Source of the DNA: Vicinamibacterales bacterium
Lineage (GTDB): Bacteria; Acidobacteriota; Vicinamibacteria; Vicinamibacterales; UBA2999
Direction of reading: 5' to 3'
Assembly (NCBI GenBank): GCA_050183355.1
Contig: JBFXBH010000001.1
Coordinates: 38,840 to 102,839 of the forward strand
DNA length: 64,000 nucleotides
The number at the start of each line of letters is the position of its first letter. Position 1 is the first letter of the stretch. The position numbers were made by a program, and so were the translations under genes. This document shows positions 11,865 to 60,580 of this stretch, one piece after another. A model generated the notes under the pieces. The model worked only from the letters and a program-made list of their open reading frames with translations. It made no database searches and was not told where the DNA came from.

Positions 11865-12731
11865 TCAGAGCTCGTCCACGGAGGCCGCTTCCGATCGCAT
11901 GAAGTACCACGTCCCGGCCACGAAGAGAATCGGGACGAGGAGTGCGGTGCAGGCGAGCGGAACCACGGGGAACTGCCCGACACCGAGCAGCCCCCACTTG
12001 TAGGTCTCGACCAGCGAGGCCATCGGATTGAGGTAGATCACCCAGTGCAGATGCTCCGGCACCTGCGACATCGGATAGATGATCGGCGTGAGGTACGACC
12101 AGAAGCGCAGGAAGTAGCGCAGTGTGAAGCGGACCTCGCGATGCCGGACCTGCCAGACGGCCGTGAACATCGACAACGCGACGGCCAGCGCGGTCGTGAC
12201 CAGCAGCACCGCGAGCGAAATCGCCCATCCCGGGCCGAACGACAGGTACCACTTTCCGTCCTGCCACAGGTAGTAGCCCGCGCTGAGGACCAGGAGGCCG
12301 AGATAGACCCCCAGGTCCGTGAAGGCCGGCACGACGCCGGCGATCGGCAGAATCAGCCGCGGGAAGTACATCTTCTTCACGAGGCCCTTCTGGCGCTCGA
12401 GGCTTCGCGTCCCGAACAGCAGCGCGCGCTCGAAGAAGTGCCAGATGCTGTGTCCCGCGAGATAGAACAGGAAATACGGCAGGCCGTCAGAGGGGACACC
12501 CAGCAGGCGGCCAAAGATGAAGGCGCCGATCAACAGCGGCAGCAGCGGTCTGGCGAAGAGCCAGAAGATGCCGAGCGTGAACCGCTGATACATCCCCCGC
12601 GTGGAACGGACGGCGAAGAACGTCAGAAGGCGCCGGTACCGCCAGAACTCCTCGACGCGCGCCCGGAATCCGAGCCCGATGGGCTCGATCGTCCATTCCT
12701 CCGGCGCCGGGGGACTAGGTGCGCGCCGCAT
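11865..12731 (-). CDS. wzm: ABC-2 type polysaccharide exporter permease (Wzm/TagG-like), ~288 aa
   Basis: ORF 11865-12857 trimmed to ATG 12731 (MRRAPSPP..), overlapping the end of the ATPase gene by 17 nt. About 6 hydrophobic segments and typical ABC-2 signatures (FWRYRRLL, KKMYFPRLILP, YLNPMASLVE). Confidence 0.85.
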   Translation of the reverse strand: MRRAPSPPAPEEWTIEPIGLGFRARVEEFWRYRRLLTFFAVRSTRGMYQRFTLGIFWLFARPLLPLLIGAFIFGRLLGVPSDGLPYFLFYLAGHSIWHFFERALLFGTRSLERQKGLVKKMYFPRLILPIAGVVPAFTDLGVYLGLLVLSAGYYLWQDGKWYLSFGPGWAISLAVLLVTTALAVALSMFTAVWQVRHREVRFTLRYFLRFWSYLTPIIYPMSQVPEHLHWVIYLNPMASLVETYKWGLLGVGQFPVVPLACTALLVPILFVAGTWYFMRSEAASVDEL

Positions 12732-13995
12732 GCAATGCCTCGATCCGCCAGTCAAGCTTCGGTGCCAGCAGGGCCGCCTTGGCCATGCGCCCCCGGCGCT
12801 GCGGACTGCCGGTGTCGTTCGCGGCATACGCCATGAAGGACAGCGCGTTGTAGGCAACCAGCGTGTACTGCCGTAGTTCTCCCTCGCGCAGCGTGACCAC
12901 GCTCACGGTCACCGAATAGTTGATGTCCGCCAGGAAATGCGCGGGAATGCGCGCGAAGATGGAATAGAAACCCGCCTCGCCGGCCTCGCGGTACTCGGTG
13001 TCATCCGATCGGAACAGGATCTGGTTCTGCGCCTCGAACATCATGGACGACTTGATCGACACCGGCTTGAAGACCTCGACATCCACGCGGATGTAGACAT
13101 CCTCTGAAATCGGCGCCGCGCCGATCTCGCGGCCGTCGGCAGCCACCAGCTTCACGCCGCGGATCGCCGCAAACCGGCTCTCCTGCCGCCCGCGCTCGAA
13201 CCGCGTCGCCTCCGAGTTCATCCAGGTGGCGTCCTGATAGTCGGCGACCACGTCCTCCGGCTCGCCTATCGCCGCGACCGTTCCCTTGTTCATCCACAGC
13301 ACGCGGTTGCAGACACGCATGATCGCGTCCATGTCATGCGACACGAACAACACCGAAAGCCCCTGGCGCCCGCACTCCGCGACCTTCTGCAGGCAGCGCT
13401 CCTGAAACGCCGCGTCTCCGACCGCGAGGATCTCGTCGGCAAGCAGGATCGAGGGGCGCATGTTGATGGCGACCGAAAATGCCAGGCGGAGGTACATGCC
13501 GCTCGAGAAGTGCTTGAGGGGCTGGTCGGCAAACTGATCGATCTCCGCGAACGCGAAGATGTCGTCCATGCACGCCATGGCGTCGGCCTTCGAGAGGCCG
13601 TTGATCGCGGCGTTCATGAACACGTTCTCGCGGGCCGACACGTCGGGATCGAATCCGGCGCCGAGTTCGAGCAGCGAGACCACGCGGCCCGTGCCGGTGA
13701 CACGACCTTCGGTCGGTGGCGTCACACGAGCAAGAACCTTCAGCAGGGTGCTCTTGCCGGCGCCGTTCGCGCCGATGACGCCGAGAATGGTGCCCGGCTC
13801 GACCTGGAACGACACGTGACGCAGAGCCCAGAACTCACGCCGCCTGGACGCCCCCGCGGGTCCCAGACCCAGCCAGCGCTTCGCCACGCTGACACCGCGC
13901 CCAAGCGCGGAAACACCCTCCGGAGCACCCGCCTCGTCCGCGGAACCCGAGACGATGTAGCACTTCCCCAGGTCGTCAATATCGAGATTGACCAT
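12715..13995 (-). CDS. wzt: ABC polysaccharide exporter ATPase with ~160-aa C-terminal extension (Wzt-like, putative glycan-terminus-binding domain), 426 aa
   Basis: Walker A GANGAGKST, signature FSSGMYLRLAFS, Walker B ILLADE, H-loop FVSHD. Residues ~265-426 lie beyond the NBD and look beta-rich (YIRVDVEVF, NYSVTVSVVTL), as in Wzt C-terminal carbohydrate-binding domains. Confidence 0.9.
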   Translation of the reverse strand: MVNLDIDDLGKCYIVSGSADEAGAPEGVSALGRGVSVAKRWLGLGPAGASRRREFWALRHVSFQVEPGTILGVIGANGAGKSTLLKVLARVTPPTEGRVTGTGRVVSLLELGAGFDPDVSARENVFMNAAINGLSKADAMACMDDIFAFAEIDQFADQPLKHFSSGMYLRLAFSVAINMRPSILLADEILAVGDAAFQERCLQKVAECGRQGLSVLFVSHDMDAIMRVCNRVLWMNKGTVAAIGEPEDVVADYQDATWMNSEATRFERGRQESRFAAIRGVKLVAADGREIGAAPISEDVYIRVDVEVFKPVSIKSSMMFEAQNQILFRSDDTEYREAGEAGFYSIFARIPAHFLADINYSVTVSVVTLREGELRQYTLVAYNALSFMAYAANDTGSPQRRGRMAKAALLAPKLDWRIEALHAART

Positions 13996-14019
13996 TCGGC
14001 TAGATCTTACTCGTCCGAT

Positions 14020-24253: not shown

Positions 24254-26734
24254 ATGCACACGGATCTGCTCGAAGTGCTTTCCTGTCCTTCGTGCAGCCG
24301 GCCGTTCCCCGAACAGCGTGAAACCGGACCGATCCTGATCCTCCGTCGCGGTCCGGACGACGACCCGGATGCGATTGCCGACGGCGCGCTGATGTGCGCG
24401 GCCTGCGGAGCCTGGTTTCCGGTTGACGATGGCCTGCTCGATCTGAGACCTCTCGCGCTGCAGGATGCCGGGCGACGGGTTCGAATCGGCACCGCACTGG
24501 GACTCGTCACCGCCTCCGCCGATGGACCCGCCGACGCGCACAAGACGGCGCAGGCCGCCTTCTTTACGCGCGAGCTCGAAGGCTACGAACGGGACGTCGT
24601 CGGCTCCCGCTTCTACCAGGCCCTCGACGCCAACACGGTGCATCGATGGGGCACGCTCGTCCCGAGCGGCACGCGGGTCCTGGATATCGGCGCCGGCACC
24701 GGCCGCGCGTCGCGCCGGCTTGCCGCCCGGGGTTGCCGCGTGGTCGCGCTCGACCTGACCGAGCCCCTGCTGCGCCGGGCCCAGGCGCAGGCGCGGGCTG
24801 ACGGCCTGTCCCGCCAGGCGGATTTCGTGCTCGGGGACGCGGAGCAACTCCCCTTCCGTGACGGCACCTTCGGTGCCGCGCTCGCTCACGGCGTGCTCCA
24901 TCATCTCGATCGGCCGGAGGCCGTGATTGCGCATGTGGGCCGGGCCCTCCAACCGGGTGGCCGCTGGTTCTCCCTGGATCCGAACCGGACACCGCTGCGC
25001 GGCGTCTTCGACGCGGCGATGCGCCTGGTCCCTCTCTGGGAGGAAGAGGCCTCGAGCAGTCCGCTCCAGGACGAGCGCAGACTGACCGCGTGGTGCGATG
25101 CGGCGGGCATCGACAGCTACGCACGCTATACGTGCTACATCCTGCCTCACGCCCTCTCGCGGGTACCGGTCCGGCTGAGCCGATGGCTGCTCGACGGCAC
25201 CGACGCCCTCTTCGCGCGCGCGCCGGGCATCTCGCGATGGGCCGGCGTGATCGTCGTATCGGGCGTCAGGCGTGGCGCCCCGCCCGTGCATCCGGAACCA
25301 CGGCGGCGCGGACGGCAAGGCGCCGTCGCCGCGATGCTCGTGGCGTTGCTGGCCCTGGCCACGACCGTCTGGAAGGTTGATGCGTCCGTCGCGGCGCGGA
25401 GCGCGTCGTACTACATGGGTGGGCTGGAGACGATGCTCGGCTACGCCAATGCGCCGGCCCGCACCGGCGTCGTCATGCTGTACCCGAACGGACAGCCGCT
25501 CGAACAAGGCACACTCGACGACATTGGATATCTGCTGGGCGCGCAACTGCTCTCGGCCGCCGGGGTTCAGGTGACTGGTGCGGTGCTGGCGCAGGCTCAC
25601 CTGCTGCTGTTCATCGCCGGCGCCGTCGCGCTGGCTGCTGGAGTGGCGACCGCGTTCTCGTCGGTGGCTGCCGGACTGATTGCGGGTGGCGCGGCATTGA
25701 CAGCTGGAAACAGTCTGCGTCACCTGCTCTACGCGCAAGTCACGAATCAGAGTATCACGCCGGTATTCCCGCCATTCGTCCTCAGCGCTCTGGCGCTGGT
25801 CGCGATCGCCACCGCGACCCCACGCGGCCGGCAGTGGCTCGCCGCCGGGTGCGCGGGGGTTCTGACAGGGCTCATCGATCTCGCGCGACACGCGCACGGG
25901 CTCGCCGTGCTCGGCACGCTCATCACGTGGATGCCACTGACACCAGTCCGGCGGAAGGCGCTCGTGGCGCTCGCGGTGGCCGTTCTGCTCGGAGTGCTGA
26001 CGGCAACGATCGGCCTGCCGACGATACTGAAGGCCCATCGCGATGTCGTGCTGCGTCGCCCGGCCGGACTCGTCGAACGCCTGGAACGCCCGCCCAGTCA
26101 CCACATCTACTACACCCTGCTCACGGCGATCGGCCGCTATCCGAACGCGCTTGGACTGACGTATGCGGACTCGTCCGTCGATGCGTACATCGCGACGGCG
26201 ACGGCTGGCGATCCGCAACCGATGGACGTCCATCGGGCGATCGAGGTGTCGCGACGCCTGTTTGTCGACTACGTCGTGGCGCACCCCGGTGAGTGGGTGC
26301 GCTCGCTGATGCGGGGCGCGGCGGAGCTGCCACCGTTCATCGCGTATGTCACGTTCACCGCCGACCGCCGTTGGGAACTCGGCTGGCCGGGCATCGCACC
26401 CGGCGTGCACGTGGACGATCGCGACAGGGCCCGGTACGGGGAGAACCTGCTGATGAACGTGCGCTGGGCCTACGTCCGCGCCTCGGCGCCGCAATGGCTC
26501 ATGTTCGGCGCCGCGTGGGTGGCGATCGCCGCCGCGGTGGGCATCGCCGTCCGCAGGCGCAGGTGGCCCGCCGACGGCTTCGTCGTGGGTGGTGCGCTGT
26601 ATCTGGCGTGGGTGGCGTTGCCCCGCGCACTGGTTCCTGTTCAGGGCCTCGACCTGGTGATGACGTTCTGGCTGGTAACCGGTCTGGCAACTGCCGCGCT
26701 GCTGGCCTGGCGGCCTGCCGGCGAGACCGACTAG
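24254..26734 (+). CDS. Zn-ribbon + class I SAM methyltransferase fused to a ~470-aa polytopic membrane domain, ~826 aa
   Basis: ORF 24215-26734, start taken at the second ATG (MHTDLLEVLSCPSC). CxxC..CxxC ribbon (CPSC..CAAC); VLDIGAGTGRASRRLA, VALDLTEPLL, FGAALAHGVLHHL. From about aa 345 there are at least 8 hydrophobic segments and one large loop. Confidence 0.7.
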   Translation: MHTDLLEVLSCPSCSRPFPEQRETGPILILRRGPDDDPDAIADGALMCAACGAWFPVDDGLLDLRPLALQDAGRRVRIGTALGLVTASADGPADAHKTAQAAFFTRELEGYERDVVGSRFYQALDANTVHRWGTLVPSGTRVLDIGAGTGRASRRLAARGCRVVALDLTEPLLRRAQAQARADGLSRQADFVLGDAEQLPFRDGTFGAALAHGVLHHLDRPEAVIAHVGRALQPGGRWFSLDPNRTPLRGVFDAAMRLVPLWEEEASSSPLQDERRLTAWCDAAGIDSYARYTCYILPHALSRVPVRLSRWLLDGTDALFARAPGISRWAGVIVVSGVRRGAPPVHPEPRRRGRQGAVAAMLVALLALATTVWKVDASVAARSASYYMGGLETMLGYANAPARTGVVMLYPNGQPLEQGTLDDIGYLLGAQLLSAAGVQVTGAVLAQAHLLLFIAGAVALAAGVATAFSSVAAGLIAGGAALTAGNSLRHLLYAQVTNQSITPVFPPFVLSALALVAIATATPRGRQWLAAGCAGVLTGLIDLARHAHGLAVLGTLITWMPLTPVRRKALVALAVAVLLGVLTATIGLPTILKAHRDVVLRRPAGLVERLERPPSHHIYYTLLTAIGRYPNALGLTYADSSVDAYIATATAGDPQPMDVHRAIEVSRRLFVDYVVAHPGEWVRSLMRGAAELPPFIAYVTFTADRRWELGWPGIAPGVHVDDRDRARYGENLLMNVRWAYVRASAPQWLMFGAAWVAIAAAVGIAVRRRRWPADGFVVGGALYLAWVALPRALVPVQGLDLVMTFWLVTGLATAALLAWRPAGETD

Positions 26735-27432
26735 CGACGCCCCCGCACCCGGAACGCCAGGTGGAAGCGGATGAGCTCCGCGACGGCCTGGAGGGCGGCG
26801 CGCCAGGTCACGCTGGACACCCCGGCCTGCCTCGGCAGACAGGTCACGTCGATCTCGACAATCCGGCACCCACCGGCATGCGCCTGCAGGACCAGTTCCG
26901 CGTCGGCAAAACCACCATTGGCGCGTGTCCTGAGGTGGGCGATGCTGGAGCGCCGGTAGAGCTTCGGCGCGTTGATGTTCGTCAGCGACAGGCCGAACAG
27001 CGCCCGGACCGTGGCCCGGTAGAAGCGCGAGAACACCAGCCGCGCCGTGGAGTCGGGCCGGTTGCGGTAGCGACCGACGACGACGTCTGCCTCTGTCGAC
27101 GCGAGCAGGTAGGCCGGCAGCTCCTCGGGCGCGATCTGTCCATCGGCCGGAATCACCCAGACCCAGTCGCCGCGGGCCGCCTGCAGTCCGGAGCGCTGCG
27201 CCGCGCCGTAGCCCCGATTGACGTCGTGCGTCACGGCACGCACGCGCGCGTCCGTACCCGCGAGCCCGTCCAGAATGCGCGGCGTGTCGTCGCGGCTTCC
27301 GTCATTGACGACGATGACTTCGTGTTCGCCGGGGATTCCGTCGAGCGTGCCGCACGCTCTGCGAACCAGTCCTGTGAGGTTCGGCGCTTCGTTGAACGCC
27401 GGCATGACGATCGAGATTCCGATGTCGGCCAT
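26731..27432 (-). CDS. GT2-family glycosyltransferase (polyprenyl-phosphate sugar synthase-like, soluble type), ~233 aa
   Basis: ORF 26731-27618 trimmed to ATG 27432 (MADIGISIVMPAFNE). VIVVNDGSRDDT, NRGYGAAQRSG, VIPADGQ. Confidence 0.85.
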   Translation of the reverse strand: MADIGISIVMPAFNEAPNLTGLVRRACGTLDGIPGEHEVIVVNDGSRDDTPRILDGLAGTDARVRAVTHDVNRGYGAAQRSGLQAARGDWVWVIPADGQIAPEELPAYLLASTEADVVVGRYRNRPDSTARLVFSRFYRATVRALFGLSLTNINAPKLYRRSSIAHLRTRANGGFADAELVLQAHAGGCRIVEIDVTCLPRQAGVSSVTWRAALQAVAELIRFHLAFRVRGRR

Positions 27433-27439
27433 CGGCACG

Positions 27440-28309
27440 TCAACCGGCGAGCGTCCGCGCCAGACCGGCCTCGATGCCCGTCCCAGGCCGGAACCGCAGC
27501 AGCTGTCGCGCGCGGGACATGTCGGCCACCATGTCACCGACAGCGGGGTTCGTACCGTCCGCGAACGTGGGCGCCGATCCCACCAGGCGGCCAATCGCCT
27601 CGGCCAGTGCCGGCACACGGACCGCCTCGGGCCCGGCGCAGTTGACGATTGCGCCTCTGCCCGCGACGAGCGCGCGTCGCGTCAGGTCGATCGCGTCATC
27701 CACGAAGACGGGGTTGAGGCGCGGATGGCGGCCGCGTGCGTGGAGCGTCACTGGCGTACCGGACGCGACGGCGGCCACGAGGCGTGGAACGAACCCGGAC
27801 GCCTGGCCTGGGCCGTACGGAAAGAAGTAGCGCACGATGCTGACGCGCCCCGGCGCGTGGAACAACGCGGCCAGCTCTCCCTGCCACTTGCTCATCGTGT
27901 AGTCGTCGAAGGGCCGCGCGCGGTGCGTCTCCCGGATACGACCGGGACGATAGCCGTAGATGCCGCCGGTCGAGCCCAGGACGAACTGCCGGACCCCGGC
28001 GCCTGCTGCCCAGGCGGCCAGCGCCGCCGTGGCGGACGTATTGACCGCGTACAGCTCATCGACGCCGGACCCTGGTGACGGGAGCCGGGCTGAAGCCAGG
28101 TGGAGGACGTAGTCAGCGCGGCGAGGCAGCCTGGCCCGGTGGAACGGCTCGCAAAGGTCGTGATCGATCCAGTCGATCCGCCCGCAACCGGACACCTCGG
28201 GCCTGCGGCGTCCCAGCGCCACGCACGAGAACTGGCGGCCGTAGGCGGCCAGAAACGCGGCCCCCAGAAATCCCGTCGCGCCGGTGATCAGCAGACGTGG
28301 CCGTGGCAC
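27440..28309 (-). CDS. NAD-dependent epimerase/dehydratase (extended SDR), ~289 aa
   Basis: ORF 27440-28567 trimmed to GTG 28309 (4 nt after the upstream stop). LLITGATGFLGAAF, DDYTMSKWQGE (YxxxK). Confidence 0.75.
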   Translation of the reverse strand: MPRPRLLITGATGFLGAAFLAAYGRQFSCVALGRRRPEVSGCGRIDWIDHDLCEPFHRARLPRRADYVLHLASARLPSPGSGVDELYAVNTSATAALAAWAAGAGVRQFVLGSTGGIYGYRPGRIRETHRARPFDDYTMSKWQGELAALFHAPGRVSIVRYFFPYGPGQASGFVPRLVAAVASGTPVTLHARGRHPRLNPVFVDDAIDLTRRALVAGRGAIVNCAGPEAVRVPALAEAIGRLVGSAPTFADGTNPAVGDMVADMSRARQLLRFRPGTGIEAGLARTLAG

Positions 28310-51105: not shown

Positions 51106-53427
51106 TCAGGACTGCCGCAGATAGTCGCGCGCGGCCCTGGGGCCCCGCGTCGGTCGCCAGTGCGTCGCGCGCGCCCGCGGGCGCTTCAGCGCCAGCTCGT
51201 CCCGCCCGCTCAGCCTGAAGAACAGGCCGAACGGGGTGAAGATCAGATAGTAGATCGCGGCCAGGACGACACGGGACAGGACCGCCCCCACGGGAGCGGT
51301 GACGGCCAGCGCCACGCGATAGAACGGCCGGACCACCGCCGGCCAGAGGCCGCCCACCAGGGCGAGCGCAACACCCGCGCCGGCGGTCGACGTCACGGTG
51401 GGCGTCACCCCGGTGCGCCAGCCCGTCCATCCGGCGAGTCCGACGAGCAGGCTCGCGCCGATCAGGGCGAACTGCCTGACCGTCCGATCGGAATCGCCCG
51501 GGCCGGCCGGCCGCGCCAGCACGGGGTCAACCGCCGACCCCTCGCCAGCCGTCAGCCGCCGCCACGCCCGTACACCGGGGCCGGGTGCGGCGTCCTTCCC
51601 GGGCCTCCGGCCGTTTGGAGGCGTGAAGGGAGGCTGCGCCGGCTTGAGAAGCAGGATGTCCTCCAACACGAGCGCGTCCATTTCCGACTGCATGAACGTG
51701 GCGTAGGCTTCCGCGGGCGTCAGCACGATCGGTTCCCAGGAGAGGTTGAAGCTGGTATTGACGACAATCGGGCAGCCGGTCAGCGTGAAGAACCGCTGCA
51801 TCAGACGGTGCAGCCTGCCATGCCGTTCATCGACCGTCTGTATCCGCGCGCTGTAGTCCACGTGCGTCACCGCCGGAATCACGCTTCGGGGAACGTTGAC
51901 GCGACGAATCAGATCCGGATCATCGCGAAGCGTCCTGGCGTCGTCCGGCGAGAGGGGCACGCGCCTGCGCTCCGCGATCGGCGCCACGAGCAGCATGTAG
52001 GGCGACTCTTCGTCGGGCCGCGTGTCGAACCACTCGGAGACGTGCTCCTTGAGCACGCAGGGCGCAAACGGCCGGAACCCCTCACGGAACTTGATCTTGA
52101 GGTTCAATGACGCCTGCGTATCCGTCCGGCGTGGATCCGCCAGAATGCTGCGCGCGCCCAGTGCGCGTGGACCGAACTCGGCACGCCCCTGAAACCAGCC
52201 GACGATCTTGCCGTCTCCAAGCAGTCCGGCCACACGGTCTAGCAGGACCGCCTCGTCCGCGACAGCTTCGTACACGGCCTGCTTCGCATCGAGCGCCGCG
52301 CGGATCTCCGCACCTGTATAGGCCGGCCCGAGGTAGCTGGCCTGTTGTCGATCCTGTCCGGTGGCGGCCCGCGGATGCTCCAGCAACTGGTGCCACACGT
52401 GCAACGCCGCGCCCAGCGCGCCTCCAGCGTCGCCGGCGGCCGGCTGGATCCAGATCCGGTCGAAGGGCCCTTCGCGCAGGAGCCGGCCATTGGCCACGCA
52501 GTTGAGAGCCACGCCACCGGCCATCACGAGATTCCGCTGCCCGGTGGCCGCGTGCGCGTGACGCCCGATCCGCAACAGGCATTCTTCCGTGACCTTCTGG
52601 ATGCTGGCCGCGATGTCCATATGCCGCTGTTCCAGCCGTCCGTCCGGCGCCCTGGGTGGCCCGCCGAACAGGACATGGAAACGGTCGCTGGTCATGCGCA
52701 GGCCCGCGGCGTACTGAAAGTACGTCTGGTCCATCCAGAAGCTGCCGTCGGCCTTGAGGTCGATGAGGTGATCGAGGATCACGTCCACGTAGCGTGGCTG
52801 TCCGTAGGGCGCCAGGCCCATCAGTTTGTATTCGCCGCTGTTGACCGCGAAGCCGCAGTAATACGTGAAGGCTGAGTAGAGCAGTCCCAGGGAGTGCGGG
52901 AACCGGATCTCGTGCGAGAGCTCGATGGCCCGCCCACGACCGCAGCCGATCGTCGCCGTACTCCACTCGCCGACACCGTCCACCGTGACGATGGCCGCCT
53001 CCTCGAACGGCGACGGAAAGAACGCGCTCGCCGCGTGACTTTCGTGATGGTCGAGAAACACGACGGGCGCACGGAGGGCGGTGCCGAGTTCGCGTCGGAT
53101 CACGCGGCGGAGGAAGAGCTTTGTCGTCAGCCACGGCGGCATGGCCGCGGAGAAACTCGACAGGCCACGCGGCGCGTGGGCGAGATACGTTTCAAGCAGA
53201 CGCTCGAACTTGACCAGCGGCTTGTCGTAGAACGCGACGTAGTCGAGATCGCGCGCCGTCAGCCCGGCCGTTCGGAGGCAGTAGGCGACCGCCTGGGCGG
53301 GAAACGCCGGATCGTTCTTGATCCGGGTGAACCGCTCCTCCTGCGCGGCGGCGACAATCTCGCCGTCCGCCACCAGGCACGCCGCGCTGTCGTGAAAGAA
53401 GGCCGAGAGCCCGAGTATCGCGGTCAC
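51106..53427 (-). CDS. NodU/CmcH-family carbamoyltransferase fused to a C-terminal ~130-aa multi-TM domain, ~773 aa
   Basis: ORF 51106-53526 trimmed to GTG 53427 (GTGA overlap with the fcl stop). ILGLSAFFHDSAACLV, EERFTRIKND, DHHESHAASAF, GGVALNCVANG, VNTSFN. The tail has 3-4 hydrophobic segments (FALIGASLLVGLAGW.., AAIYYLIFTPFGLFF). Confidence 0.85.
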   Translation of the reverse strand: MTAILGLSAFFHDSAACLVADGEIVAAAQEERFTRIKNDPAFPAQAVAYCLRTAGLTARDLDYVAFYDKPLVKFERLLETYLAHAPRGLSSFSAAMPPWLTTKLFLRRVIRRELGTALRAPVVFLDHHESHAASAFFPSPFEEAAIVTVDGVGEWSTATIGCGRGRAIELSHEIRFPHSLGLLYSAFTYYCGFAVNSGEYKLMGLAPYGQPRYVDVILDHLIDLKADGSFWMDQTYFQYAAGLRMTSDRFHVLFGGPPRAPDGRLEQRHMDIAASIQKVTEECLLRIGRHAHAATGQRNLVMAGGVALNCVANGRLLREGPFDRIWIQPAAGDAGGALGAALHVWHQLLEHPRAATGQDRQQASYLGPAYTGAEIRAALDAKQAVYEAVADEAVLLDRVAGLLGDGKIVGWFQGRAEFGPRALGARSILADPRRTDTQASLNLKIKFREGFRPFAPCVLKEHVSEWFDTRPDEESPYMLLVAPIAERRRVPLSPDDARTLRDDPDLIRRVNVPRSVIPAVTHVDYSARIQTVDERHGRLHRLMQRFFTLTGCPIVVNTSFNLSWEPIVLTPAEAYATFMQSEMDALVLEDILLLKPAQPPFTPPNGRRPGKDAAPGPGVRAWRRLTAGEGSAVDPVLARPAGPGDSDRTVRQFALIGASLLVGLAGWTGWRTGVTPTVTSTAGAGVALALVGGLWPAVVRPFYRVALAVTAPVGAVLSRVVLAAIYYLIFTPFGLFFRLSGRDELALKRPRARATHWRPTRGPRAARDYLRQS

Positions 53428-54383
53428 GCGAGGCTGGCGCGGGCCGCGCCCTGGGCGAGACCATGCTCCAGAAACCACCGGTAGGTGGACCGGATCCCGT
53501 CGGGCAGGTCGACGCGGTGCCGCCACCCGAGGCGGTGAATACGCGAGACATCGAGAAGCTTCCGCGGCGCGCCGTCGGGCTTGGAGGTGTCGAAGTCAAG
53601 CGCCGCGCCTGGATACACGACATCCCGCACGAGTGCCGCCAGCTCGGCAATCGAGACGTCCTCGCCCGTGCCGACGTTGATGTGGGGGCGGTCGCTGTAC
53701 TGCTGCATCAGGAAGACGCAGGCGTCCGCCAGATCGTCCACATGCAGGAACTCCCGGCGCGGACGTCCGGTGCCCCAGATCGTCACGGTCCCCGCGCCTT
53801 TCTCCTTCGCCTCGTGACACTTCCGGATCAGCGCAGGCACGACGTGCGACGCGGTCAGATCGAAGTTGTCACCGGGCCCGTACAGGTTGGTCGGCATCGC
53901 CGAGATGAAGTCGCATCCGTACTGCCGGCGGTACGCCTCGCAGATCTTGATGCCGGCGATCTTCGCCACCGCATAGGGTTCGTTGGTCGGCTCGAGGAGT
54001 CCCGTCAGCAAGGCCTCCTCCGCCATCGGCTGCGGCGCCTCACGCGGGTAGATGCACGAGCTGCCGAGATACAGCAGCTTCCTGACGCCGTGCTGGTACG
54101 CGGCGTGGACCACCGTGGCGTGGATCATCATGTTGTCGTAGATGAACTCGGCCGGGCGCGTGGAGTTCGCCAGGATGCCGCCGACCGTCCCTGCGACCAG
54201 GAACACATACTCGGGACGGTTCACGCGGAACCAGTCGTCGACGGCGGCCTGATTCCGCAGGTCGAGCCGGTCGCGCGTGGCCGTCAGGAGCGACGAATAG
54301 CCCTCGGCGTTCAGGCGCCGGACGACTGCGGAACCCACGAGCCCCCGGTGACCGCTGACGAAGATGCGGCTGGCACGCTCCAT
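53424..54383 (-). CDS. fcl: GDP-L-fucose synthase (GDP-4-keto-6-deoxymannose 3,5-epimerase/4-reductase)
   Basis: Full ORF, 319 aa. IFVSGHRGLVGSA, LYLGSSCIYP, EPYAVAKIAG, PTNLYGPGDNF, GTGRPRREFLHVDDLA. Confidence 0.9.
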   Translation of the reverse strand: MERASRIFVSGHRGLVGSAVVRRLNAEGYSSLLTATRDRLDLRNQAAVDDWFRVNRPEYVFLVAGTVGGILANSTRPAEFIYDNMMIHATVVHAAYQHGVRKLLYLGSSCIYPREAPQPMAEEALLTGLLEPTNEPYAVAKIAGIKICEAYRRQYGCDFISAMPTNLYGPGDNFDLTASHVVPALIRKCHEAKEKGAGTVTIWGTGRPRREFLHVDDLADACVFLMQQYSDRPHINVGTGEDVSIAELAALVRDVVYPGAALDFDTSKPDGAPRKLLDVSRIHRLGWRHRVDLPDGIRSTYRWFLEHGLAQGAARASLA

Positions 54384-54396
54384 GAGGAAACCTATT

Positions 54397-54867
54397 CTAG
54401 CGGTTGCGGGCCTTCACTGCCGCGCGGGTCTCGCGGTCAACCTCGCGACGCCGGATCGTTTCGCGCTTGTCGTGGAGCTGCTTGCCCCTGGCGAGCGCGA
54501 CGGCAACCTTCACGCGGCCGTCCTTGAAGTACATCCGGAGAGGCACGAGGGTCAGCCCCTTCTCGGCCACCTTGCCGGTCAGTTTCCGGATCTCGGCCTT
54601 GTGCAGCAGCAGCTTCCGCTGCCGCCGATCTTCGTGCGAGGCATACCCGCTGTGGCTGTACGGGCCGATGTGCAGGTTCAGCAGCCACACCTCGCCGTTG
54701 TCGAGCCTGGCGTAGCTGTCCCGGAGGTTTACGCTGCCTTCCCGGATGGACTTGACCTCCGTTCCGAGCAGCACGACCCCCGCCTCGAACGTGTCGAGGA
54801 CGTGGTAATCGTGCAGGGCCTTACGGTTATCCGCGATGAGGCGGCCGGCGTCGTCCTTCTCGGGCAC
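54397..54867 (-). CDS. smpB: SsrA-binding protein SmpB
   Basis: Full ORF, 156 aa. IADNRKALHDYHVLDTFEAGVVLLGTEVKS, RKLLLHKAEIRKL, GLTLVPLRMYF. Confidence 0.95.
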   Translation of the reverse strand: MPEKDDAGRLIADNRKALHDYHVLDTFEAGVVLLGTEVKSIREGSVNLRDSYARLDNGEVWLLNLHIGPYSHSGYASHEDRRQRKLLLHKAEIRKLTGKVAEKGLTLVPLRMYFKDGRVKVAVALARGKQLHDKRETIRRREVDRETRAAVKARNR

Positions 54868-55037: not shown

Positions 55038-56741
55038 CTATCGAAGGCAGGGCCAGCCTGTATCGCGATAGGTCCCGCGCACCTCACGGTCCCGCCTCAC
55101 GAAGAGCTTCACGCGGCTGCCATTGCCGAGGTCGACGTCACCATGCTCGCGAAAGCCGATTCGGAGCCACGCGTCGATTCGCGGCATCTCCCGCTCGATG
55201 CCGCCGTAATCGTCGCCGGCCGGCATGATGGCGAGCGGCACGCGCTGGCGCTGCAGGCGCTCCACGGCCAGCTGTTGCTCGGGGCCTGTCTTGTAGAAAC
55301 TGGGACGAAGGTCGGCATGGCCGGCCGGAAACGGCCTCCGCGCCAGCGCATGCACCTCCGCCATGTACGGGGAGATGAAGACGCGGTCGTCGTCCGCCGT
55401 GCAGTCACGCACGTAGTAGATCAGCCGTGACGTGCCGCCGCGATCGCGATCCAGCCAGCCCTCGAGCGGCCATGTCACGAGACGCTGGCGCATGGCGATG
55501 GCGCGGTCGTACGCGCCTAACGGCCGATCCAGCATGCCCGTGTTGTCCAGGCGCGTGCGCACAGGCGGGAAGAGCACGAAGACCGTGCCGGCGAGCACCG
55601 CCAGCGTCATGGTCGCCGTGGCCACGCGGAGGACAAACGGTCCGGTCGTCACGCGGCGCAGCGCCGTCCGCAGGAGCCACGCGGCGCACACGGCCGTCGT
55701 GACACCGACATCGCCGAATCGGATCGCGAGATTCCCCCGGATGAAGCCCCAGAAAAGGAGGAGTCCCAACCCCGCCACGACGATGAGCTTCTGGCGTGCA
55801 TGCGGCCAGTCGTTGCGCGACTCGACGCTGCCTGCCTGACCGGCAAGCGTCGCCAACGGCAGCGCCAACAGCAGCCAGAACAGCCACGGCTCGTAGTTGC
55901 GGGCGGCCTGTTCGAACACACCCCGCTCCCACCAGTCGGCATCGTCGGGCACCCGATCCTCATCGGACTGCGGAGTGAGCGCAAAGGCCGGCAGAATCAG
56001 CGGCGCACGCTCGCGGTCGCGCTGCGAATAGGAGTTCGCCGTCCGGACGTGTGTCAGCACGCCTCCGTTCAGCTGCAACCAGCCCAGATACGGCAGGGCG
56101 CAGGCCACGGTCAGCAGCCCGTACGCGGCCAGGTGCTTGAGACGCGGCAGCCAGCCGACATGCGTCTGCAGCAGGATCGTCGCCACGCAGGCGAGACCGA
56201 TGAACGCGCCGTGGTCGTGCCGGAGGAGCAACGCCACGACGCTGAACACGGCCAACGCGATGCGCTTCTTCGTGGTCGGCGCGTCGACGTACGACCAGAG
56301 CAGCGGGAACGCCGCGGCATAGATCAACACCTTGGGATAGTTGTAATAGCGCGGAAGCAGCACGGCCTGAAAGACGGCGGCACCCAGGCCGACGAGGGTG
56401 GAGCCTGATGCCCGTCGGGCCGCCCAGAACGTCAGGGCCGTCGCGATCGAGAGCATCGTGACCGTGAAGAGGATCTCCGAGCCCGTACCGCGGCCCCCAA
56501 CGACCTGCGTCAGCGCGGCGAGCACGAAGGTGAGCGGCGCTCCCGGGTCCACGAAATCGCGATCGGGCCACTCGCCGTACAGAATCTGCCACCCACGCGT
56601 GAGGTAGAAGAAGTGGTCGTCACTGAGGCCCGCAACCGGCCCGTCAAGGTCGACGTAGCGATAGAGCCAGGACCAGACAAACACCGCGATCCCTACCAGG
56701 CTGGCGACCGCCCCTCCCAGCGTCACAGCTGTCTTCTTCAT
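55038..56741 (-). CDS. Polytopic membrane protein with ~170-aa C-terminal extracytoplasmic domain (GT-C-like or polymerase-like candidate), ~567 aa
   Basis: ORF 55038-56852 trimmed to ATG 56741 (MKKTAVTLGG; ATGA overlap). At least 10 hydrophobic segments and a soluble tail (RLIYYVRDCTADDDRVF..). Confidence 0.65.
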   Translation of the reverse strand: MKKTAVTLGGAVASLVGIAVFVWSWLYRYVDLDGPVAGLSDDHFFYLTRGWQILYGEWPDRDFVDPGAPLTFVLAALTQVVGGRGTGSEILFTVTMLSIATALTFWAARRASGSTLVGLGAAVFQAVLLPRYYNYPKVLIYAAAFPLLWSYVDAPTTKKRIALAVFSVVALLLRHDHGAFIGLACVATILLQTHVGWLPRLKHLAAYGLLTVACALPYLGWLQLNGGVLTHVRTANSYSQRDRERAPLILPAFALTPQSDEDRVPDDADWWERGVFEQAARNYEPWLFWLLLALPLATLAGQAGSVESRNDWPHARQKLIVVAGLGLLLFWGFIRGNLAIRFGDVGVTTAVCAAWLLRTALRRVTTGPFVLRVATATMTLAVLAGTVFVLFPPVRTRLDNTGMLDRPLGAYDRAIAMRQRLVTWPLEGWLDRDRGGTSRLIYYVRDCTADDDRVFISPYMAEVHALARRPFPAGHADLRPSFYKTGPEQQLAVERLQRQRVPLAIMPAGDDYGGIEREMPRIDAWLRIGFREHGDVDLGNGSRVKLFVRRDREVRGTYRDTGWPCLR

Positions 56742-57217
56742 GGCGAGATCCTCGGATAGCGCACGTCCGCGCAGTCCGCGGGCGGCTCGAAACCCTCCCG
56801 CGCGCGCAACCACTCCTGGGCATCGATGTTCCGCTGGGACACGGCGAGGCACCAGAGCACCGGCATCTGGGCCGTCCCGAGCCGAGCGCCGCCGGCCACC
56901 AGATACGCCATCACACTGACGTGCCGGGATGTCATCGCTGCCTCAAGGGGGGTCATGGCCGCGTTTACGGCGCGGATCCGTGTCCGCCGCACGCGCTCGG
57001 CCCGGTTCGGATCGGCCCCGGCCCGCAGCAGGCGGACCACATCCGCGTCGCTCTCGAGAGCCGCGGCTTCGGGAAGCGTCATGCGCTCCGCGGATGAGAA
57101 CGGGGCGACCTCGATTACGCGCAGCAGCAGCGCGAGAGCGATGACGACCGCCAGCAGCCCACCCGGAAGTCCGATTGCGAGCGCGGCGACACTCGGGCGT
57201 TGCGGCCGGCTGTTCAT
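56738..57217 (-). CDS. Signal-anchored ankyrin-repeat-like protein, ~159 aa
   Basis: Only the last 159 codons of ORF 56738-58846 are used (the rest overlaps the 57214-58644 gene out of frame). MNSRPQRPSVAALAIGLPGGLLAVVIALALLL, then TLPEAAALESDADVVRLLRAGADPN and MTPLEAAMTSRHVSVMAYLVAGGARL (ANK-like). ATGA overlaps at both ends. Confidence 0.5.
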   Translation of the reverse strand: MNSRPQRPSVAALAIGLPGGLLAVVIALALLLRVIEVAPFSSAERMTLPEAAALESDADVVRLLRAGADPNRAERVRRTRIRAVNAAMTPLEAAMTSRHVSVMAYLVAGGARLGTAQMPVLWCLAVSQRNIDAQEWLRAREGFEPPADCADVRYPRISP

Positions 57218-58644
57218 CGGAACACCCGTGTGCCCTGCAGGGCCAGACCGTAGGGGTTGCCCGTCACGCGGGCCAGCGCATCGTCCCGCAGCGTCTCCAC
57301 GAGCCGCCGGCCGGCGTCGGTCGAGGGCGACGCCCGCTGGGCCGCGAGCCACGCGTCCACCGTGACCCACTCGTTCCGGACATCGTGCGCCATCTGGTGC
57401 AGGTGATAGTGCAGCCCGACCGCGCGGACGGCCCAGCCGCCCGAGACCACCAGCAGGACCGCCAGCAGCGTCAGGCGCATCGGGCTCGACACGCCAGGCA
57501 CGCGCTCCCGGCCCTCGGCGCGCGCCGCGAGCCACTCCCGGGCCGCCGCCGTCGCCGCCAGCGCGTAGAACGCGCCGGCCACGCTCATGATCTCGTCCTT
57601 CGTGTATCCGTACGACAGCACCGCGTTCGCGACGACGAGCACACCGGCGAGGATGGCCGCCCGATCGCCCCGGTCGAACCGGCGGAGGCGCCACGCCGCC
57701 CACCGGCGCACGGCCCACACGGCGAGACCGGCTGTCGTCACGAGCGACACGGCGATGTTCATCAGCGTCCCCGGCTGCACGCCGCCCTCCCGCGCCTCGG
57801 CCACCAGCGTCCAGACGCCCGCGCGCGGCTGCGAGGCCAGCACCGAGCCGATCGATGAGACGACGTTGTAGGCATACAGCACGAACGGCCGGTCGCCGAA
57901 CCGGCGCGTCAGCTCGGCCGGGTCCAGGCGCGCGGCGCCGAAGCCCGTGCTGCGCTCGACCAGGGTGGGCAGGCCGGTCGAGAATCCGAACCGGACGGCC
58001 GCGTACCCGGCGAGCAGGACCGTGAGCACCACGATCCCCCGTCGCGAGAGCCCGGGTGCGCCACACCACCAGGCCACGACGGCGACGACCCAGACGAGCA
58101 GGCCCGACTCCAGCGTCAGCGCCGCGGCGACGAGCGCGAGCGCCGCCAGCGCGTCCGCCCACCAGCCGCCGGGCGACTCGGCGAGCACGTAGACGCACAG
58201 GCACGCCACGACCACTTCGAGGAAGTGGTTGATCGGGTACGCCTCCCAGACGGTGCCGAGGAAGGTGTGCAGCCCCGTCAGCACCGTCAGGCCGAACGCG
58301 AGCGCCCAGAGGTCCGCCGACTGCCGCACGCGCACGGCGATCGTGAACAGCGCCAGGCATACGCAGGTGAGCGCCACGTGAAAGCCGCGAAAGACCTCGA
58401 AGTACCGGCCATCGGCCACGTCGAACAGCCACTGGATCTGGCCGATACGCAGCGGACGCAGGTACCCCGCCGAGTCGGCGCTGCTCATCACGGCGGCGCG
58501 CCACGACGCCGCCTCCTGCGCCTGGAGGAGCGGAATCAGACTGTCGGTGACCTGAACCGGGATCGTGAGCAGGCCGGCGCCGAGCCCCGCGGCATAGATG
58601 CCGGTGAGGAGCCACGCGGCCGCGCGGATGCGGGTTCCCGTCAC
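57214..58644 (-). CDS. Polytopic membrane protein (about 10-12 TM; O-antigen polymerase/ligase-like or GT-C-like candidate), ~476 aa
   Basis: ORF 57214-59124 trimmed to GTG 58644 (GTGA overlap with the GT2 stop). Hydrophobic throughout (AAAWLLTGIYAAGLGAGLL, VALTCVCLALFTIAV, LVWVVAVVAWW..). Confidence 0.65.
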   Translation of the reverse strand: MTGTRIRAAAWLLTGIYAAGLGAGLLTIPVQVTDSLIPLLQAQEAASWRAAVMSSADSAGYLRPLRIGQIQWLFDVADGRYFEVFRGFHVALTCVCLALFTIAVRVRQSADLWALAFGLTVLTGLHTFLGTVWEAYPINHFLEVVVACLCVYVLAESPGGWWADALAALALVAAALTLESGLLVWVVAVVAWWCGAPGLSRRGIVVLTVLLAGYAAVRFGFSTGLPTLVERSTGFGAARLDPAELTRRFGDRPFVLYAYNVVSSIGSVLASQPRAGVWTLVAEAREGGVQPGTLMNIAVSLVTTAGLAVWAVRRWAAWRLRRFDRGDRAAILAGVLVVANAVLSYGYTKDEIMSVAGAFYALAATAAAREWLAARAEGRERVPGVSSPMRLTLLAVLLVVSGGWAVRAVGLHYHLHQMAHDVRNEWVTVDAWLAAQRASPSTDAGRRLVETLRDDALARVTGNPYGLALQGTRVFR

Positions 58645-59432
58645 GAAGCGCGGCGGCCGCCCCGCGCGGGATAGCGGCCGAGCAGTTGATTCCAGCGCAC
58701 GCGCAGCAGGTCCACGAAGCCGGCGCCGCCGGCCAGGGCGGTAACCTTCGTGCTGGCGCGATACGTCCACGTGACCGGCACTTCGCGCACGGTGAACCCG
58801 GCACGGCCCGCGAGAAACAGAATCTCGCAGTCGAAGCCGAAGCCATCGAGCCGCTGCAGCGGAAAGAGCGTGGTCGCCGCCTCGGCGCTGAACAGCTTGT
58901 AGCCGCACTGCGTATCCGAGAGCCCGCCGACGACCAGCAGCTTCGCGGCGATGTTGAAGGCGCGCCCCAGCGCGTGCCGGTGCCACGGCTCCTCGATCCG
59001 CTCCGCGCCGGCGGCTTCCCGCGAGCCGATCAGGATGTCCGCCGCGGGCACACCCGGTCCGGGCAGGAACCGCGAGAGCTCGTGGATCGGCATCGAGAGG
59101 TCGGCGTCGGCGAGAAAGCGCCACGTGCCGGCCGCCTCGATCATGCCGCGCCGGACGGCGCCGCCCTTGCCGAGGTGCGGCGCGGCGATCAGCCGGACGC
59201 GCGGGTCGGCCTCCTGCCGGCGGCTCACGATCTCGCGCGTGCGGTCGGTGCTGCCGTCATCGACGACGAGCACTTCCCACGTGTGTCCCAGCCGGTCGAG
59301 CTCAGCCACGACGTCTGCCAGCGTCTGATCGATGCAGGCCTCCTCGTTGTACGCGGGGATGACGATCGAAATGAACGGCGCGGGCACCACCGGAATTGTA
59401 GTCTCGCGCCACGCCGCGGCCCCTTTTTGCAT
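58641..59432 (-). CDS. GT2-family glycosyltransferase (polyprenyl/dolichyl-phosphate hexose synthase-like), 263 aa
   Basis: Full ORF. ISIVIPAYNEE, VLVVDDGSTDRT, GKGGAVRRGM, LADADLS, QCGYKLF. Confidence 0.85.
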   Translation of the reverse strand: MQKGAAAWRETTIPVVPAPFISIVIPAYNEEACIDQTLADVVAELDRLGHTWEVLVVDDGSTDRTREIVSRRQEADPRVRLIAAPHLGKGGAVRRGMIEAAGTWRFLADADLSMPIHELSRFLPGPGVPAADILIGSREAAGAERIEEPWHRHALGRAFNIAAKLLVVGGLSDTQCGYKLFSAEAATTLFPLQRLDGFGFDCEILFLAGRAGFTVREVPVTWTYRASTKVTALAGGAGFVDLLRVRWNQLLGRYPARGGRRAS

Positions 59433-59443
59433 ATCCTGAGTCC

Positions 59444-60580
59444 ATGCTCCGTCGACTGCGGCAGGCCGCGGCCATCATCCGTCCGAGTGCCGTGGCGCAA
59501 TTGGCGTCGCGCCTGACACGCCTCACCACCGATCACCACACCCTGGCCACGCAGGCCCGTCAGCACATCCGAGCCACGGAGAGGGCCCTGCAGGGTCTCA
59601 CGCGGCACGCCGAGCGCGATCGCGGGAAGCTGCTCAGGCAGGCCGAGACCCAGGCCGCGCAGACGGCACGGCTCGCGGATCTGACCGCGCAGGTCGCCGC
59701 GCTGCAGGAGACCGTCCGGCGTCTGTCCACGCGAACGGACCACCTGACGGTGGCGACCGAGCGGCTGACGGCCGACGACGACGTGTCGTCGCTCATCGAC
59801 GGCGTGCTCGACGTCGGGGCCGTGCAAGCCCACGTCCGGTCGGTGCTCGACCGGACGCCGCTCGAGTCGGACCCGTATCCGCACATGGTGCTGGACAATC
59901 TGCTGCCGTCGGCGTTCTACAAGGCGCTCATCGACACGATGCCGCCGCGTGCCCTGTTCGACGAGGCCGTCAACAAGGAGCAGTTGCGCGTCCCCCCGCG
60001 TGGCGCGGGGCTCACGACGTTCCGCATCTGGCGGTTCCTCGTGGCCGAGATCCTCGAGAGCCAGCTGCAGGACGCCCTGCTCGCCCGCTTCCGCGAGCCG
60101 CTCACCGAGTACGCGCGCCGCTTCTGGCCCTCGGCGAACCTGGACGACCTGCGCCTGGGCGGGTCGGATGGCCGCATCATCCTGCGCCAGCGGGGCTACG
60201 TGATCCCGCCGCATCGGGACCCGAAGTGGGCCTGGCTGACCTTCATCCTCTATCTCGCGAAGCCGGGCGACCCGGACACGTGGGGCACGCAGTTGTATCG
60301 GGTCAACGACGACGTCGAGGCCCCGGGGGCCCAGCCCTTCTGGATGGGATCGCACGACCACGTGCTGGCGAAAGACGTCCGCTTCCTCCCCAACCGCGCG
60401 CTGGTCTTCCTGAATGCCGACGGGTCGCACGGCGCGTCGATTCCGGAGGACGCTCCGGCGGACTTCGAGCGCTACATCTACCAGTTCCGCATCGGTCCGG
60501 ATCGGAAGGCCGTCGAGCGCCTGAAGGCGGAGCTCCCGCCAGAGGCGCGGGCGAAGTGGGAGGGGAAGCAGGGCTACTGA
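59444..60580 (+). CDS. Coiled-coil protein with C-terminal 2OG-Fe(II)-oxygenase-like domain, 378 aa
   Basis: Full ORF. The N-terminal ~110 aa are heptad-like (LQGLTRHAERDRGKLLRQAETQAAQTARLADLTAQVAALQETVRRL). Then DPYPHMVLDNLLPSAFY, IPPHRDPKW (HxD), NADGSHGAS (distal His). The antisense 467-aa ORF was rejected on composition. Confidence 0.6.
   Translation: MLRRLRQAAAIIRPSAVAQLASRLTRLTTDHHTLATQARQHIRATERALQGLTRHAERDRGKLLRQAETQAAQTARLADLTAQVAALQETVRRLSTRTDHLTVATERLTADDDVSSLIDGVLDVGAVQAHVRSVLDRTPLESDPYPHMVLDNLLPSAFYKALIDTMPPRALFDEAVNKEQLRVPPRGAGLTTFRIWRFLVAEILESQLQDALLARFREPLTEYARRFWPSANLDDLRLGGSDGRIILRQRGYVIPPHRDPKWAWLTFILYLAKPGDPDTWGTQLYRVNDDVEAPGAQPFWMGSHDHVLAKDVRFLPNRALVFLNADGSHGASIPEDAPADFERYIYQFRIGPDRKAVERLKAELPPEARAKWEGKQGY

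Follow-up and report, generated by a model that had tools for sequence, protein, structure and literature searches.

A candidate lipid-carrier-dependent extracytoplasmic glycosylation operon with an ankyrin-repeat protein in an uncultured acidobacterium

The four-gene operon and its products

We analysed a 64,000-nt stretch of DNA (the window) that spans positions 38840-102839 of contig C1 (JBFXBH010000001.1) in genome G000 (3.3 Mb, 308 contigs, 92.47% complete). At 55038-59432 the window carries four coupled minus-strand genes, which encode a family 2 glycosyltransferase (GT2), two polytopic membrane proteins (MemA and MemB) and a small ankyrin-repeat (ANK) protein. The acidobacterium carrying this operon is an uncultured, soil-type member of the Vicinamibacterales, an abundant and poorly studied soil group, and the nearest homologues of the operon proteins were labelled Vicinamibacterales or Acidobacteriota. 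The operon probably forms a lipid-carrier-dependent module for extracytoplasmic glycosylation; we put the probability of this reading at roughly two-thirds.

Table 1. Genes of the operon, further MemA-ankyrin pairs and other genes named in the text. Positions are those of the window unless locus L005 (G000:C1:12000-31000) is given.
Feature	Position	Strand	Description
GT2	58641-59432	minus	263 aa; candidate polyprenyl-phosphate sugar synthase that would make the lipid-linked donor
MemA	57214-58644	minus	476 aa; membrane glycosyltransferase with a GT-C fold in its predicted model
Ankyrin-repeat protein	56738-57217	minus	159 aa; N-terminal transmembrane helix and 2-3 ANK repeats
MemB	55038-56741	minus	567 aa, polytopic; C-terminal soluble domain of ~170 aa; remote PMT_2/ArnT-type GT-C candidate
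MemA-ankyrin pair	L005 11464-12873 + 11005-11463		15-20 kb upstream of the window
MemA-ankyrin pair	L005 6726-8156 + 6259-6801		15-20 kb upstream of the window
GtrB-like GT2	L005 3187-4125		full-length; in the cluster of the extra pairs
smpB	54397-54867	minus	downstream of MemB
GDP-L-fucose synthase gene	53424-54383		beyond smpB
Carbamoyltransferase gene	51106-53526		beyond the GDP-L-fucose synthase gene
Divergent gene	59444-60580	plus	upstream of GT2
Second GT2 of the window	26731-27681	minus	candidate lipid-sugar synthase
ABC-2 membrane protein + ATPase	11865-14019		Wzm/Wzt-type ABC exporter
Coiled-coil gene	10414-11853		

Each junction of the operon is a 4-nt overlap of a stop and a start codon. 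The GT2 stop codon overlaps the GTG start codon of MemA in GTGA (gcttcGTGAcgg); the MemA stop and the ankyrin ATG share ATGA (ccgATGAac), as do the ankyrin stop and the MemB ATG (gccATGAag), and a GAGGA lies 5' of the MemB start codon. The exact coordinates and the GTGA/ATGA/ATGA overlaps given in the original prediction for this locus were verified. A public protein collection held entries with the same starts and lengths for MemA (P0125, 476 aa), the ankyrin protein (P0245, 159 aa) and MemB (P0005, 567 aa). The regional G+C content is ~70%, and the operon frames showed the third-position G+C (GC3) bias typical of real genes, with GC3 values of 0.87 for GT2 and 0.82 for MemB. The MemA and ankyrin frames narrowly missed the GC3/GC2 filter; they were accepted as genes because their homologues are conserved.

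GT2 matched PF00535 over residues 22-186 (E 1.2e-26, 94.1 bits) and contained the motifs DDGSTD at 58-63 and DAD at 109-111. Its nearest solved relatives in the PDB were ArnC (8.4e-14), the Pyrococcus DPMS (2.2e-12, residues 21-228) and the Synechocystis GtrB (2e-7), in line with its earlier description as polyprenyl-phosphate-hexose-synthase-like. GT2 thus has a GT-A catalytic domain with a DxD motif, closest to polyprenyl-phosphate glycosyltransferases. Its PDB alignments ended ahead of the transmembrane (TM) region of ArnC and GtrB. The top NCBIfam rows were PgfS, a halophile Dol-P-hexose transferase, AglJ and PpgS, with scores that fell short of the respective cut-offs (60.3 bits against 500 for PgfS; 48.7 against 370 for PpgS, with residues 23-226 aligned), and the short, TM-less form of GT2 resembles the lengths of the PpgS and halophile models (226 and 213). 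GT2 orthologues were fused N-terminally to MemA in four proteins among the 120 MemA homologues listed (P0148, P0196, P0236 and P0244) and also in P0282. Such fusions appear to link the functions of donor synthesis and transfer.

MemA did not match any Pfam or NCBIfam family even at E<=10. Neither MemA nor MemB, whether queried singly or as a profile, matched any PDB sequence; the sole row, OST2 at E 0.78, was taken as chance. An AlphaFold2 model of MemA from a 34-sequence alignment had a pLDDT of 88.7, a pTM of 0.91 and 11 TM helices, so that the predicted polytopic nature stood, with 11 helices in place of the proposed ~12. Foldseek gave weak matches to this model (best E 0.027, none <=0.001), with ArnT, STT3, EmbB, ALG12 and AftB among its high-probability rows (0.9-0.99). 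Because Foldseek was too weak, VIA-align searches were needed. Among 48,161 representative chains, the top 20 for MemA were all GT-C enzymes, with Z from 16.4 to 8.7 and 255-384 residues aligned; ALG12 (16.4), ArnT (16.2), AglB (16.1) and Pmt1/2 (16.0) led, ALG6 (8.7) came last, and below them stood short helical matches alone (Z <=8). When VIA-align was applied to Foldseek's top 999 chains, the top 33 were again all GT-C, with yeast STT3 in first place (Z 18.4) and the last of them at 8.3, whereas the next chain had 5.4. The SEDS proteins FtsW and RodA reached Z 4.8 and 4.3, and MFS-type transporters had TM-scores of 0.10-0.14, which argues against MemA being a polymerase, ligase or transporter. 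The ESM Atlas model of MemA had a TM-score of 0.63 to a PMT_2/PMT cluster. MemA is therefore predicted, from its model, to have a GT-C fold.

The model also places the conserved residues of MemA. D34, in the segment IPVQVTDS, lies in the first external loop between model helices 3-25 and 32-44; it was invariant in 34/34 sequences, and in a wider set with paralogues 26 of 27 sequences retained it. Ten residues (D34, R63, P64, H126, E134, E179, R218, R231, Y259 and N260) were conserved in 26-27 of these 27. With the N-terminus of the model inside, the first external loop comprises residues 26-80, contains three short helices and bears D34, R63 and P64, and the remaining conserved polar residues fall in external loops or at outer helix ends. 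The inner loops are rich in Lys/Arg (five in 314-325, four in 369-383). In relatives, a cytoplasmic GT2 domain is fused straight before TM1 of MemA, indicating that the N-terminus of MemA is cytoplasmic. The check proposed earlier for MemA came out in favour of the prediction, with a GT-C fold in the model and a conserved acidic residue, D34, in the first external loop. MemA combines this fold with an undescribed sequence family, which is sizeable (737 representative clusters at E<=1e-3).

Several MemA homologues have an additional domain. In P0305-P0308 and P0356 (892-925 aa) and in L040:4071-7325, MemA is fused behind another polytopic domain of ~430 aa that has no Pfam match and that matched PMT_2 weakly in hhalign (57%, E 1e-4); these may be double GT-C proteins. 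P0390 (656 aa) was considered as a MemA-ANK fusion and rejected as a frameshift artefact, since its linker reads like out-of-frame sequence.

MemB itself had no Pfam or NCBIfam match even at E<=10, and the gathering score of PMT_2 (PF13231) was not reached. Weak matches appeared among 34 MemB relatives, to PMT_2 in 6/34 (best E 5.7e-4) and to PTPS_related in 5/34. For profile comparison by hhalign, we drew 35 proteins with PMT_2 and 30 with Wzy_C from G000 and 12 related genomes. The MemB profile (34 sequences) matched the PMT_2 set with 97.3% probability (E 1.9e-11, 211 columns) and the Wzy_C set with 7.9%; a wider MemB profile (69 sequences) gave 96.9% and 2.1%, and the control comparison of the PMT_2 set with the Wzy_C set gave 4.6%. 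A first comparison with six PMT_2 proteins, superseded by the 35-protein set, had given 79.6% for MemB and 0.1% for MemA. MemA matched the 30 Wzy_C proteins with 1.3% (7.4% with the wide alignment), and the two membrane proteins were not detectably related to each other (0.4%). In the MemB alignment, DDHFFY falls on the 'De..y' motif of PMT_2 loop 1 and GAPLTF on 'Ppl', which places the DDH motif of MemB on the PMT_2 DE motif, in favour of the earlier prediction. Residues D42, R61, D62, E89, K137, R174-H175-D176-H177, R335, R341, D344, C447, R469 and C565 were conserved in 65-69 of 69 sequences. The hydropathy profile had ~11-13 segments followed by a 171-aa soluble tail, in agreement with the predicted soluble C-terminal domain; the count of ~10 TM helices was too low. 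These data make MemB a remote PMT_2/ArnT-type GT-C candidate.

The ankyrin protein matched Pfam Ank marginally (22.6 bits against a cut-off of 21.1) and Ank_2 below cut-off (17.1 against 27.3). At the family level, Ank matched 30/31 members and Ank_2 16/31. The family profile returned 400 PDB matches (best 3.1e-30), the best 60 of which were all of ankyrin-repeat or DARPin type; single DARPins matched it at ~1e-11 to 1e-12. Two of its repeats, TLPEAAALESDADVVRLLRAGADPN and TPLEAAMTSRHVSVMAYLVAGGA, are canonical, and the third is a capping half-repeat. Both the family hidden Markov model (HMM) and the comparison of the profile with the PDB upheld the earlier ankyrin call, and by these comparisons the 159-aa protein is a real ankyrin protein of 2-3 repeats with one predicted N-terminal membrane helix at ~residues 13-31. 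Across the 31 sequences, the mean net charge was +1.7 before the helix and -2.5 over the 15 aa after it. C123 and C149 were invariant in the same 31 sequences, and C123 was kept in 20/25 of a wider set. The charge bias and the conserved cysteines suggest an N-in, C-out anchor that would place the ankyrin domain in the periplasm.

Gene pairing, distribution and genomic setting

To survey the neighbourhood of these genes, 63 MemB-anchored loci were scanned with HMMs of the four operon proteins, which yielded 26 MemA genes; because the loci were selected through MemB, the MemB figures are biased. The ankyrin gene stood directly 3' of MemA in 21 of the 25 cases with >=500 nt downstream, and a MemB gene came next in 12 of these 21 pairs. 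The present genome has one MemB and three copies of MemA, and an ankyrin-like gene follows every MemA (3/3). The MemA paralogues are 38-39% identical, and the ankyrin proteins 39% over 67 aa. The two extra pairs sit among amino-sugar genes in a sugar-nucleotide cluster. It encodes a GFO/IDH oxidoreductase, hexapeptide acetyltransferases, a DegT aminotransferase, a dehydratase and NeuB, as well as a full-length GtrB-like GT2 (5ekp, 2.2e-52, residues 2-296). A MemA-anchored search found a close MemA in G122 (1/1) in the order GT2-MemA-ANK, with MemB 2.3 kb further on.

Within the genus, MemA was present in 4/4 genomes, with 4-7 matches apiece; the figures were 9/12 for the same family and 0/8 for other families of the order. 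In a phylum-wide sample it was found in 4 of 301 genomes, a figure that is an undercount because five candidates were scored per genome.

MemB genes often occurred as tandem paralogues (L006, L008, L012, L019, L020, L049, L055, L058, L059 and L061), and in L058 three MemB genes are interspersed with three MemA-ankyrin pairs. MemB relatives that were 31-68% identical over the best segment lay on contigs labelled Bifidobacteriaceae, Acidimicrobiia or Dehalococcoidia (L009, L011, L019, L036, L038 and L068); all other MemB loci were labelled Acidobacteriota or Vicinamibacterales. The former assignments appear to be mistakes of binning or labelling.

The operon lies at the border of a glycan island of ~100 kb. 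From ~4 kb to 59 kb of the window, nearly all genes are on the minus strand and belong to sugar-nucleotide or glycan synthesis, including dehydratases, DegT aminotransferases, acetyltransferases, methyltransferases, a UDP-glucose/GDP-mannose-type dehydrogenase, a heptose-type kinase/nucleotidyltransferase and the Wzm/Wzt-type exporter. Gene content of this kind continues upstream of the window, in a 19-kb segment of the contig (C1:12000-31000) with genes for NeuB, a CMP-type cytidylyltransferase and further tailoring enzymes. Downstream of MemB, after a gap of 170 bp, lies smpB (7.4e-64), followed by the GDP-L-fucose synthase and carbamoyltransferase genes. The position of smpB between the operon and these two genes means either that the glycan island is interrupted there or that the operon is a separate unit at the island edge.

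On the other side of the operon lies a divergent gene and then pdxA and a DNA polymerase III delta' gene. The start codon of the divergent gene is 11 bp from that of GT2, so the promoters would lie inside coding sequence, or one of the two starts is miscalled. Read by eye, its product has a coiled-coil-like N-terminus and a C-terminal HRD...SHG pattern that recalls 2-oxoglutarate oxygenases. It had no significant Pfam match (best E 0.016, below cut-off), no meaningful PDB relative and, in NCBIfam, only a weak TIGR04211 row (21 bits against a cut-off of 65), and a comparison indicated that it is unrelated to the product of the coiled-coil gene.

The second GT2 of the window, whose best solved relative was ArnC (3.5e-15, residues 89-299), is possibly a third lipid-sugar synthase. 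Six more canonical PMT_2-type GT-C genes are located on contigs C305, C16, C6, C10, C9 and C256 (L069-L074), suggesting that extracytoplasmic glycosylation is heavily used in this organism. A canonical Wzy_C gene is present elsewhere in the genome. The sequencing runs that contain at least half of the stretch were three landfill metagenomes of one study, two of which may be the source sample; no RNA run was among those listed as containing it.

The proposed pathway and its alternatives

In the pathway that we propose, the soluble GT2 would charge polyprenyl (undecaprenyl) phosphate with the sugar of a nucleotide sugar on the cytoplasmic side of the membrane, as its homology suggests. Association with MemA would keep GT2 at the membrane; in some relatives the two are covalently joined. 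The lipid-linked monosaccharide would then be flipped across the membrane. On the periplasmic side, two GT-C-type transferases would use the flipped donor, an assignment that comes from the predicted fold for MemA and from profile homology for MemB; putative catalytic acidic residues in the first external loop are D34 of MemA and D41/D42 of MemB. The use of a polyprenyl-phosphate-linked donor by MemA on the outside we infer from its modelled fold and from the fusion or adjacency of GT2. MemA would amount to a minimal GT-C core that lacks a large domain in the periplasm, and the ankyrin protein would serve as its periplasmic subunit, which would stabilise MemA or present the acceptor. The C-terminal domain of MemB, putatively periplasmic, would serve the same purpose for MemB itself. 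The original prediction had invoked the logic of the Gtr and ArnC/ArnT systems, in which a sugar is loaded onto undecaprenyl phosphate, flipped and transferred outside the cytoplasm; the relatives of GT2, the fold of MemA and the profile match of MemB all support it.

Several observations weigh against this pathway. GT2 has no hydrophobic segment in its 263 aa and so has no counterpart of the C-terminal TM helices found in GtrB and ArnC, and it scored far below every NCBIfam equivalog cut-off (best 25 of 27 matched families); with neither a TM anchor nor an equivalog score, a conventional cytoplasmic acceptor for GT2 is conceivable. No GtrA-family flippase (PF04138) was found in the 92.47%-complete genome, other flippase types not having been searched, and the same search found this family in 8 of 14 reference genomes used as a control; the flipping step is thus left without a candidate. 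Among the 34 MemA family members, none matched any GT-C Pfam family at E<=1, and the hhalign match of MemA to the PMT_2 set was weak (26.2%, or 72.2% with the wider alignment). Four distant MemA-like genes (in G258 and G039; E 1e-36 to 1e-52) had no ankyrin match beside them, and their extensions contained no informative Pfam domain, the one row (Tmemb_14, E 0.0067) being at chance level. The ankyrin domain is only putatively periplasmic, on the basis of charge bias and conserved cysteines. Finally, ankyrin repeats usually bind proteins, which makes them a poor fit to a glycan acceptor.

The last point bears on the nature of the acceptor. Most likely, the acceptor is the polysaccharide or glycoconjugate of the surrounding island with its Wzm/Wzt-type exporter; the modification of glycan side branches foreseen earlier is one of several scenarios for it. 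The alternative is that proteins are the acceptors, through O- (or N-) protein glycosylation like that of PMT/TMTC, streptococcal Pgf or GtrB/PgtC2, with the ankyrin protein as an adaptor that recruits substrates to MemA. Because ankyrin repeats are protein-binding modules, we keep this option as an unlikely but serious contender. MemB is nearest to PMT_2, a family that includes protein O-mannosyltransferase-like enzymes; the structural neighbours of MemA include STT3, PglB, Pmt1/2, Pmt4 and DPY19; and the top NCBIfam row of GT2 was PgfS, from a system (a GT-A and two GT-C enzymes) that acts on proteins. However, neighbours of MemA with similar Z include the glycan- or lipid-directed ArnT, ALG12, Emb and Aft. 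The operon stands at the edge of an island of polysaccharide and sugar-nucleotide genes that includes an ABC-2 exporter, the two paralogous MemA-ANK pairs lie inside that island, and no candidate gene for a Ser/Thr-rich substrate was seen beside the operon. Between the two, a glycan acceptor is somewhat more likely than a protein acceptor.

A different possibility is that GT2 is an ordinary cytoplasmic glycosyltransferase acting on an Und-PP-linked oligosaccharide, while MemA and MemB work independently with donors made elsewhere. The missing TM anchor and the sub-cut-off NCBIfam scores agree with it, as do the other ArnC/GtrB-like GT2s of the genome. The 26 MemA genes speak on both sides: GT2 was absent from the neighbourhood of 15, which also counts against the proposed pathway, and was fused to MemA in 5 and adjacent to it in 6. 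This adjacency or fusion in 11/26 and again in G122, the recurrence of the fusions, the translational coupling through the GTGA overlap, and the best solved relatives of GT2, all of which are polyprenyl-phosphate acceptor enzymes, make an independent GT2 very improbable.

That MemA, MemB or both are Wzy-type polymerases, WaaL-type ligases or transporters is scarcely credible: both are polytopic proteins in a glycan locus and 3/34 MemB relatives weakly matched Wzy_C (best E 0.0025), a further point against our assignment of MemB, but the top structural neighbours of MemA are all GT-C enzymes, both proteins matched Wzy_C poorly in hhalign while MemB matched PMT_2 strongly, the genome carries its own canonical Wzy_C gene elsewhere, and the match to Wzy/WaaL or to transporters that the original prediction had named as its refutation did not arise for either protein.

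Within the glycosylation pathway, a bolder proposal concerns the pairing of MemA with the ankyrin protein. The two may be obligate partners in a GT-C holoenzyme, the founder of an undescribed glycosyltransferase family in which a membrane-anchored periplasmic ankyrin domain replaces the built-in acceptor-binding domains of other GT-C enzymes. In the genus, this holoenzyme would have radiated into 3-7 specialised pairs per genome. Each pair might serve its own unusual sugar of the island, and in some cases the transferase would be directly fused to its donor synthase. We hold this proposal tentatively, at a little less than even odds.

Extracytoplasmic glycosylation from lipid-linked monosaccharides is a known route of surface diversification whose enzymes are hard to recognise by sequence. 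The MemA family illustrates this, as it is without a match in the Pfam, NCBIfam and PDB-sequence searches despite a clear GT-C fold in the model, and the GT2-MemA fusions provide a built-in clue to its function. If functional, the near-constant ankyrin pairing would represent a new kind of accessory subunit for GT-C enzymes and an unusual role of ankyrin repeats in bacteria. The compact four-gene unit is suited to heterologous expression, which offers a route to the sugars and acceptors of Vicinamibacterales.

Comparison with known systems

The three-component systems (GtrA/GtrB/GtrC, ArnC/ArnEF/ArnT, CsbB/GtcA/YfhO and GT136) likewise load a sugar onto polyprenyl phosphate at the cytoplasmic face and transfer it outside through a GT-C enzyme. 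The present operon differs from them in a GT2 without TM helices, which in relatives forms one polypeptide with the GT-C protein, in two unrelated GT-C proteins per operon, in a MemA that matches no GT-C sequence family, and in that no GtrA-type flippase was found (other types were not searched). To our knowledge, a separately encoded ankyrin partner is no part of these systems, and a full-text literature search, with subscription journals outside its coverage, found no publication on an ankyrin partner of a GT-C enzyme. In the pentofuranose system of Citrobacter youngae (PPPRS/MATE/GT136), the GT-C enzyme ORF12 has an added periplasmic carbohydrate-binding module (CBM) that binds the acceptor (PMC11127046). 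We propose this CBM as a parallel to the tail of MemB and, in trans, to the ankyrin protein.

GT-C enzymes with built-in repeat or binding domains are alike in combining a GT-C core with a soluble, acceptor-engaging extracytoplasmic domain; here, the repeat domain is an ankyrin domain on a separate membrane-anchored polypeptide, the putative partner. TMTC with its TPR and PMT with its MIR domains are examples of the built-in arrangement. Emb and AftD are GT-C enzymes with CBMs, as named in the same source (PMC11127046).

The Pgf system of Streptococcus mutans comprises the GT-A enzyme PgfS, the YfhO-type GT-C enzymes PgfM1 and PgfM2, with a catalytic motif in an extramembrane loop, and the epimerase PgfE (10.1101/2024.05.05.592596). 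It shares with the operon the combination of one GT-A and two polytopic GT-C proteins in one cluster, and PgfS is the top NCBIfam row of GT2. However, GT2 is no PgfS equivalog (60 against 500 bits), neither MemA nor MemB matched the YfhO Pfam family, and the operon has no epimerase gene. The acceptors of Pgf are proteins, and the cited text mentions no ankyrin protein.

In mycobacteria, the GT2 PpgS (Rv3631), together with Rv3632, makes a polyprenyl-phosphate sugar with which the GT-C enzyme Rv3779 decorates arabinogalactan with galactosamine outside the membrane (PMC3485146). PpgS and the D2/D1 domains of Ppm1 resemble our operon in that a membrane protein accompanies the GT2 or forms a fusion with it. 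In these systems, however, that membrane protein is not the GT-C enzyme but either small or an Lnt-type domain, and no ankyrin protein is known to take part.

An exported ankyrin protein had been expected to be unusual. It may have a precedent, since AnkB of Pseudomonas aeruginosa is cited, in a later article, as a periplasmic ankyrin-like protein needed for the activity of the catalase KatB (PMC12754779). By that account, AnkB too is a bacterial ankyrin protein reported in the periplasm and encoded beside the protein that it supports; its partner is a catalase and not a membrane glycosyltransferase, and the likeness is one of description. In sum, the logic of the operon is that of the three-component systems, and its differences are an unannotated GT-C family, a TM-less donor synthase, two GT-C proteins and an ankyrin partner.

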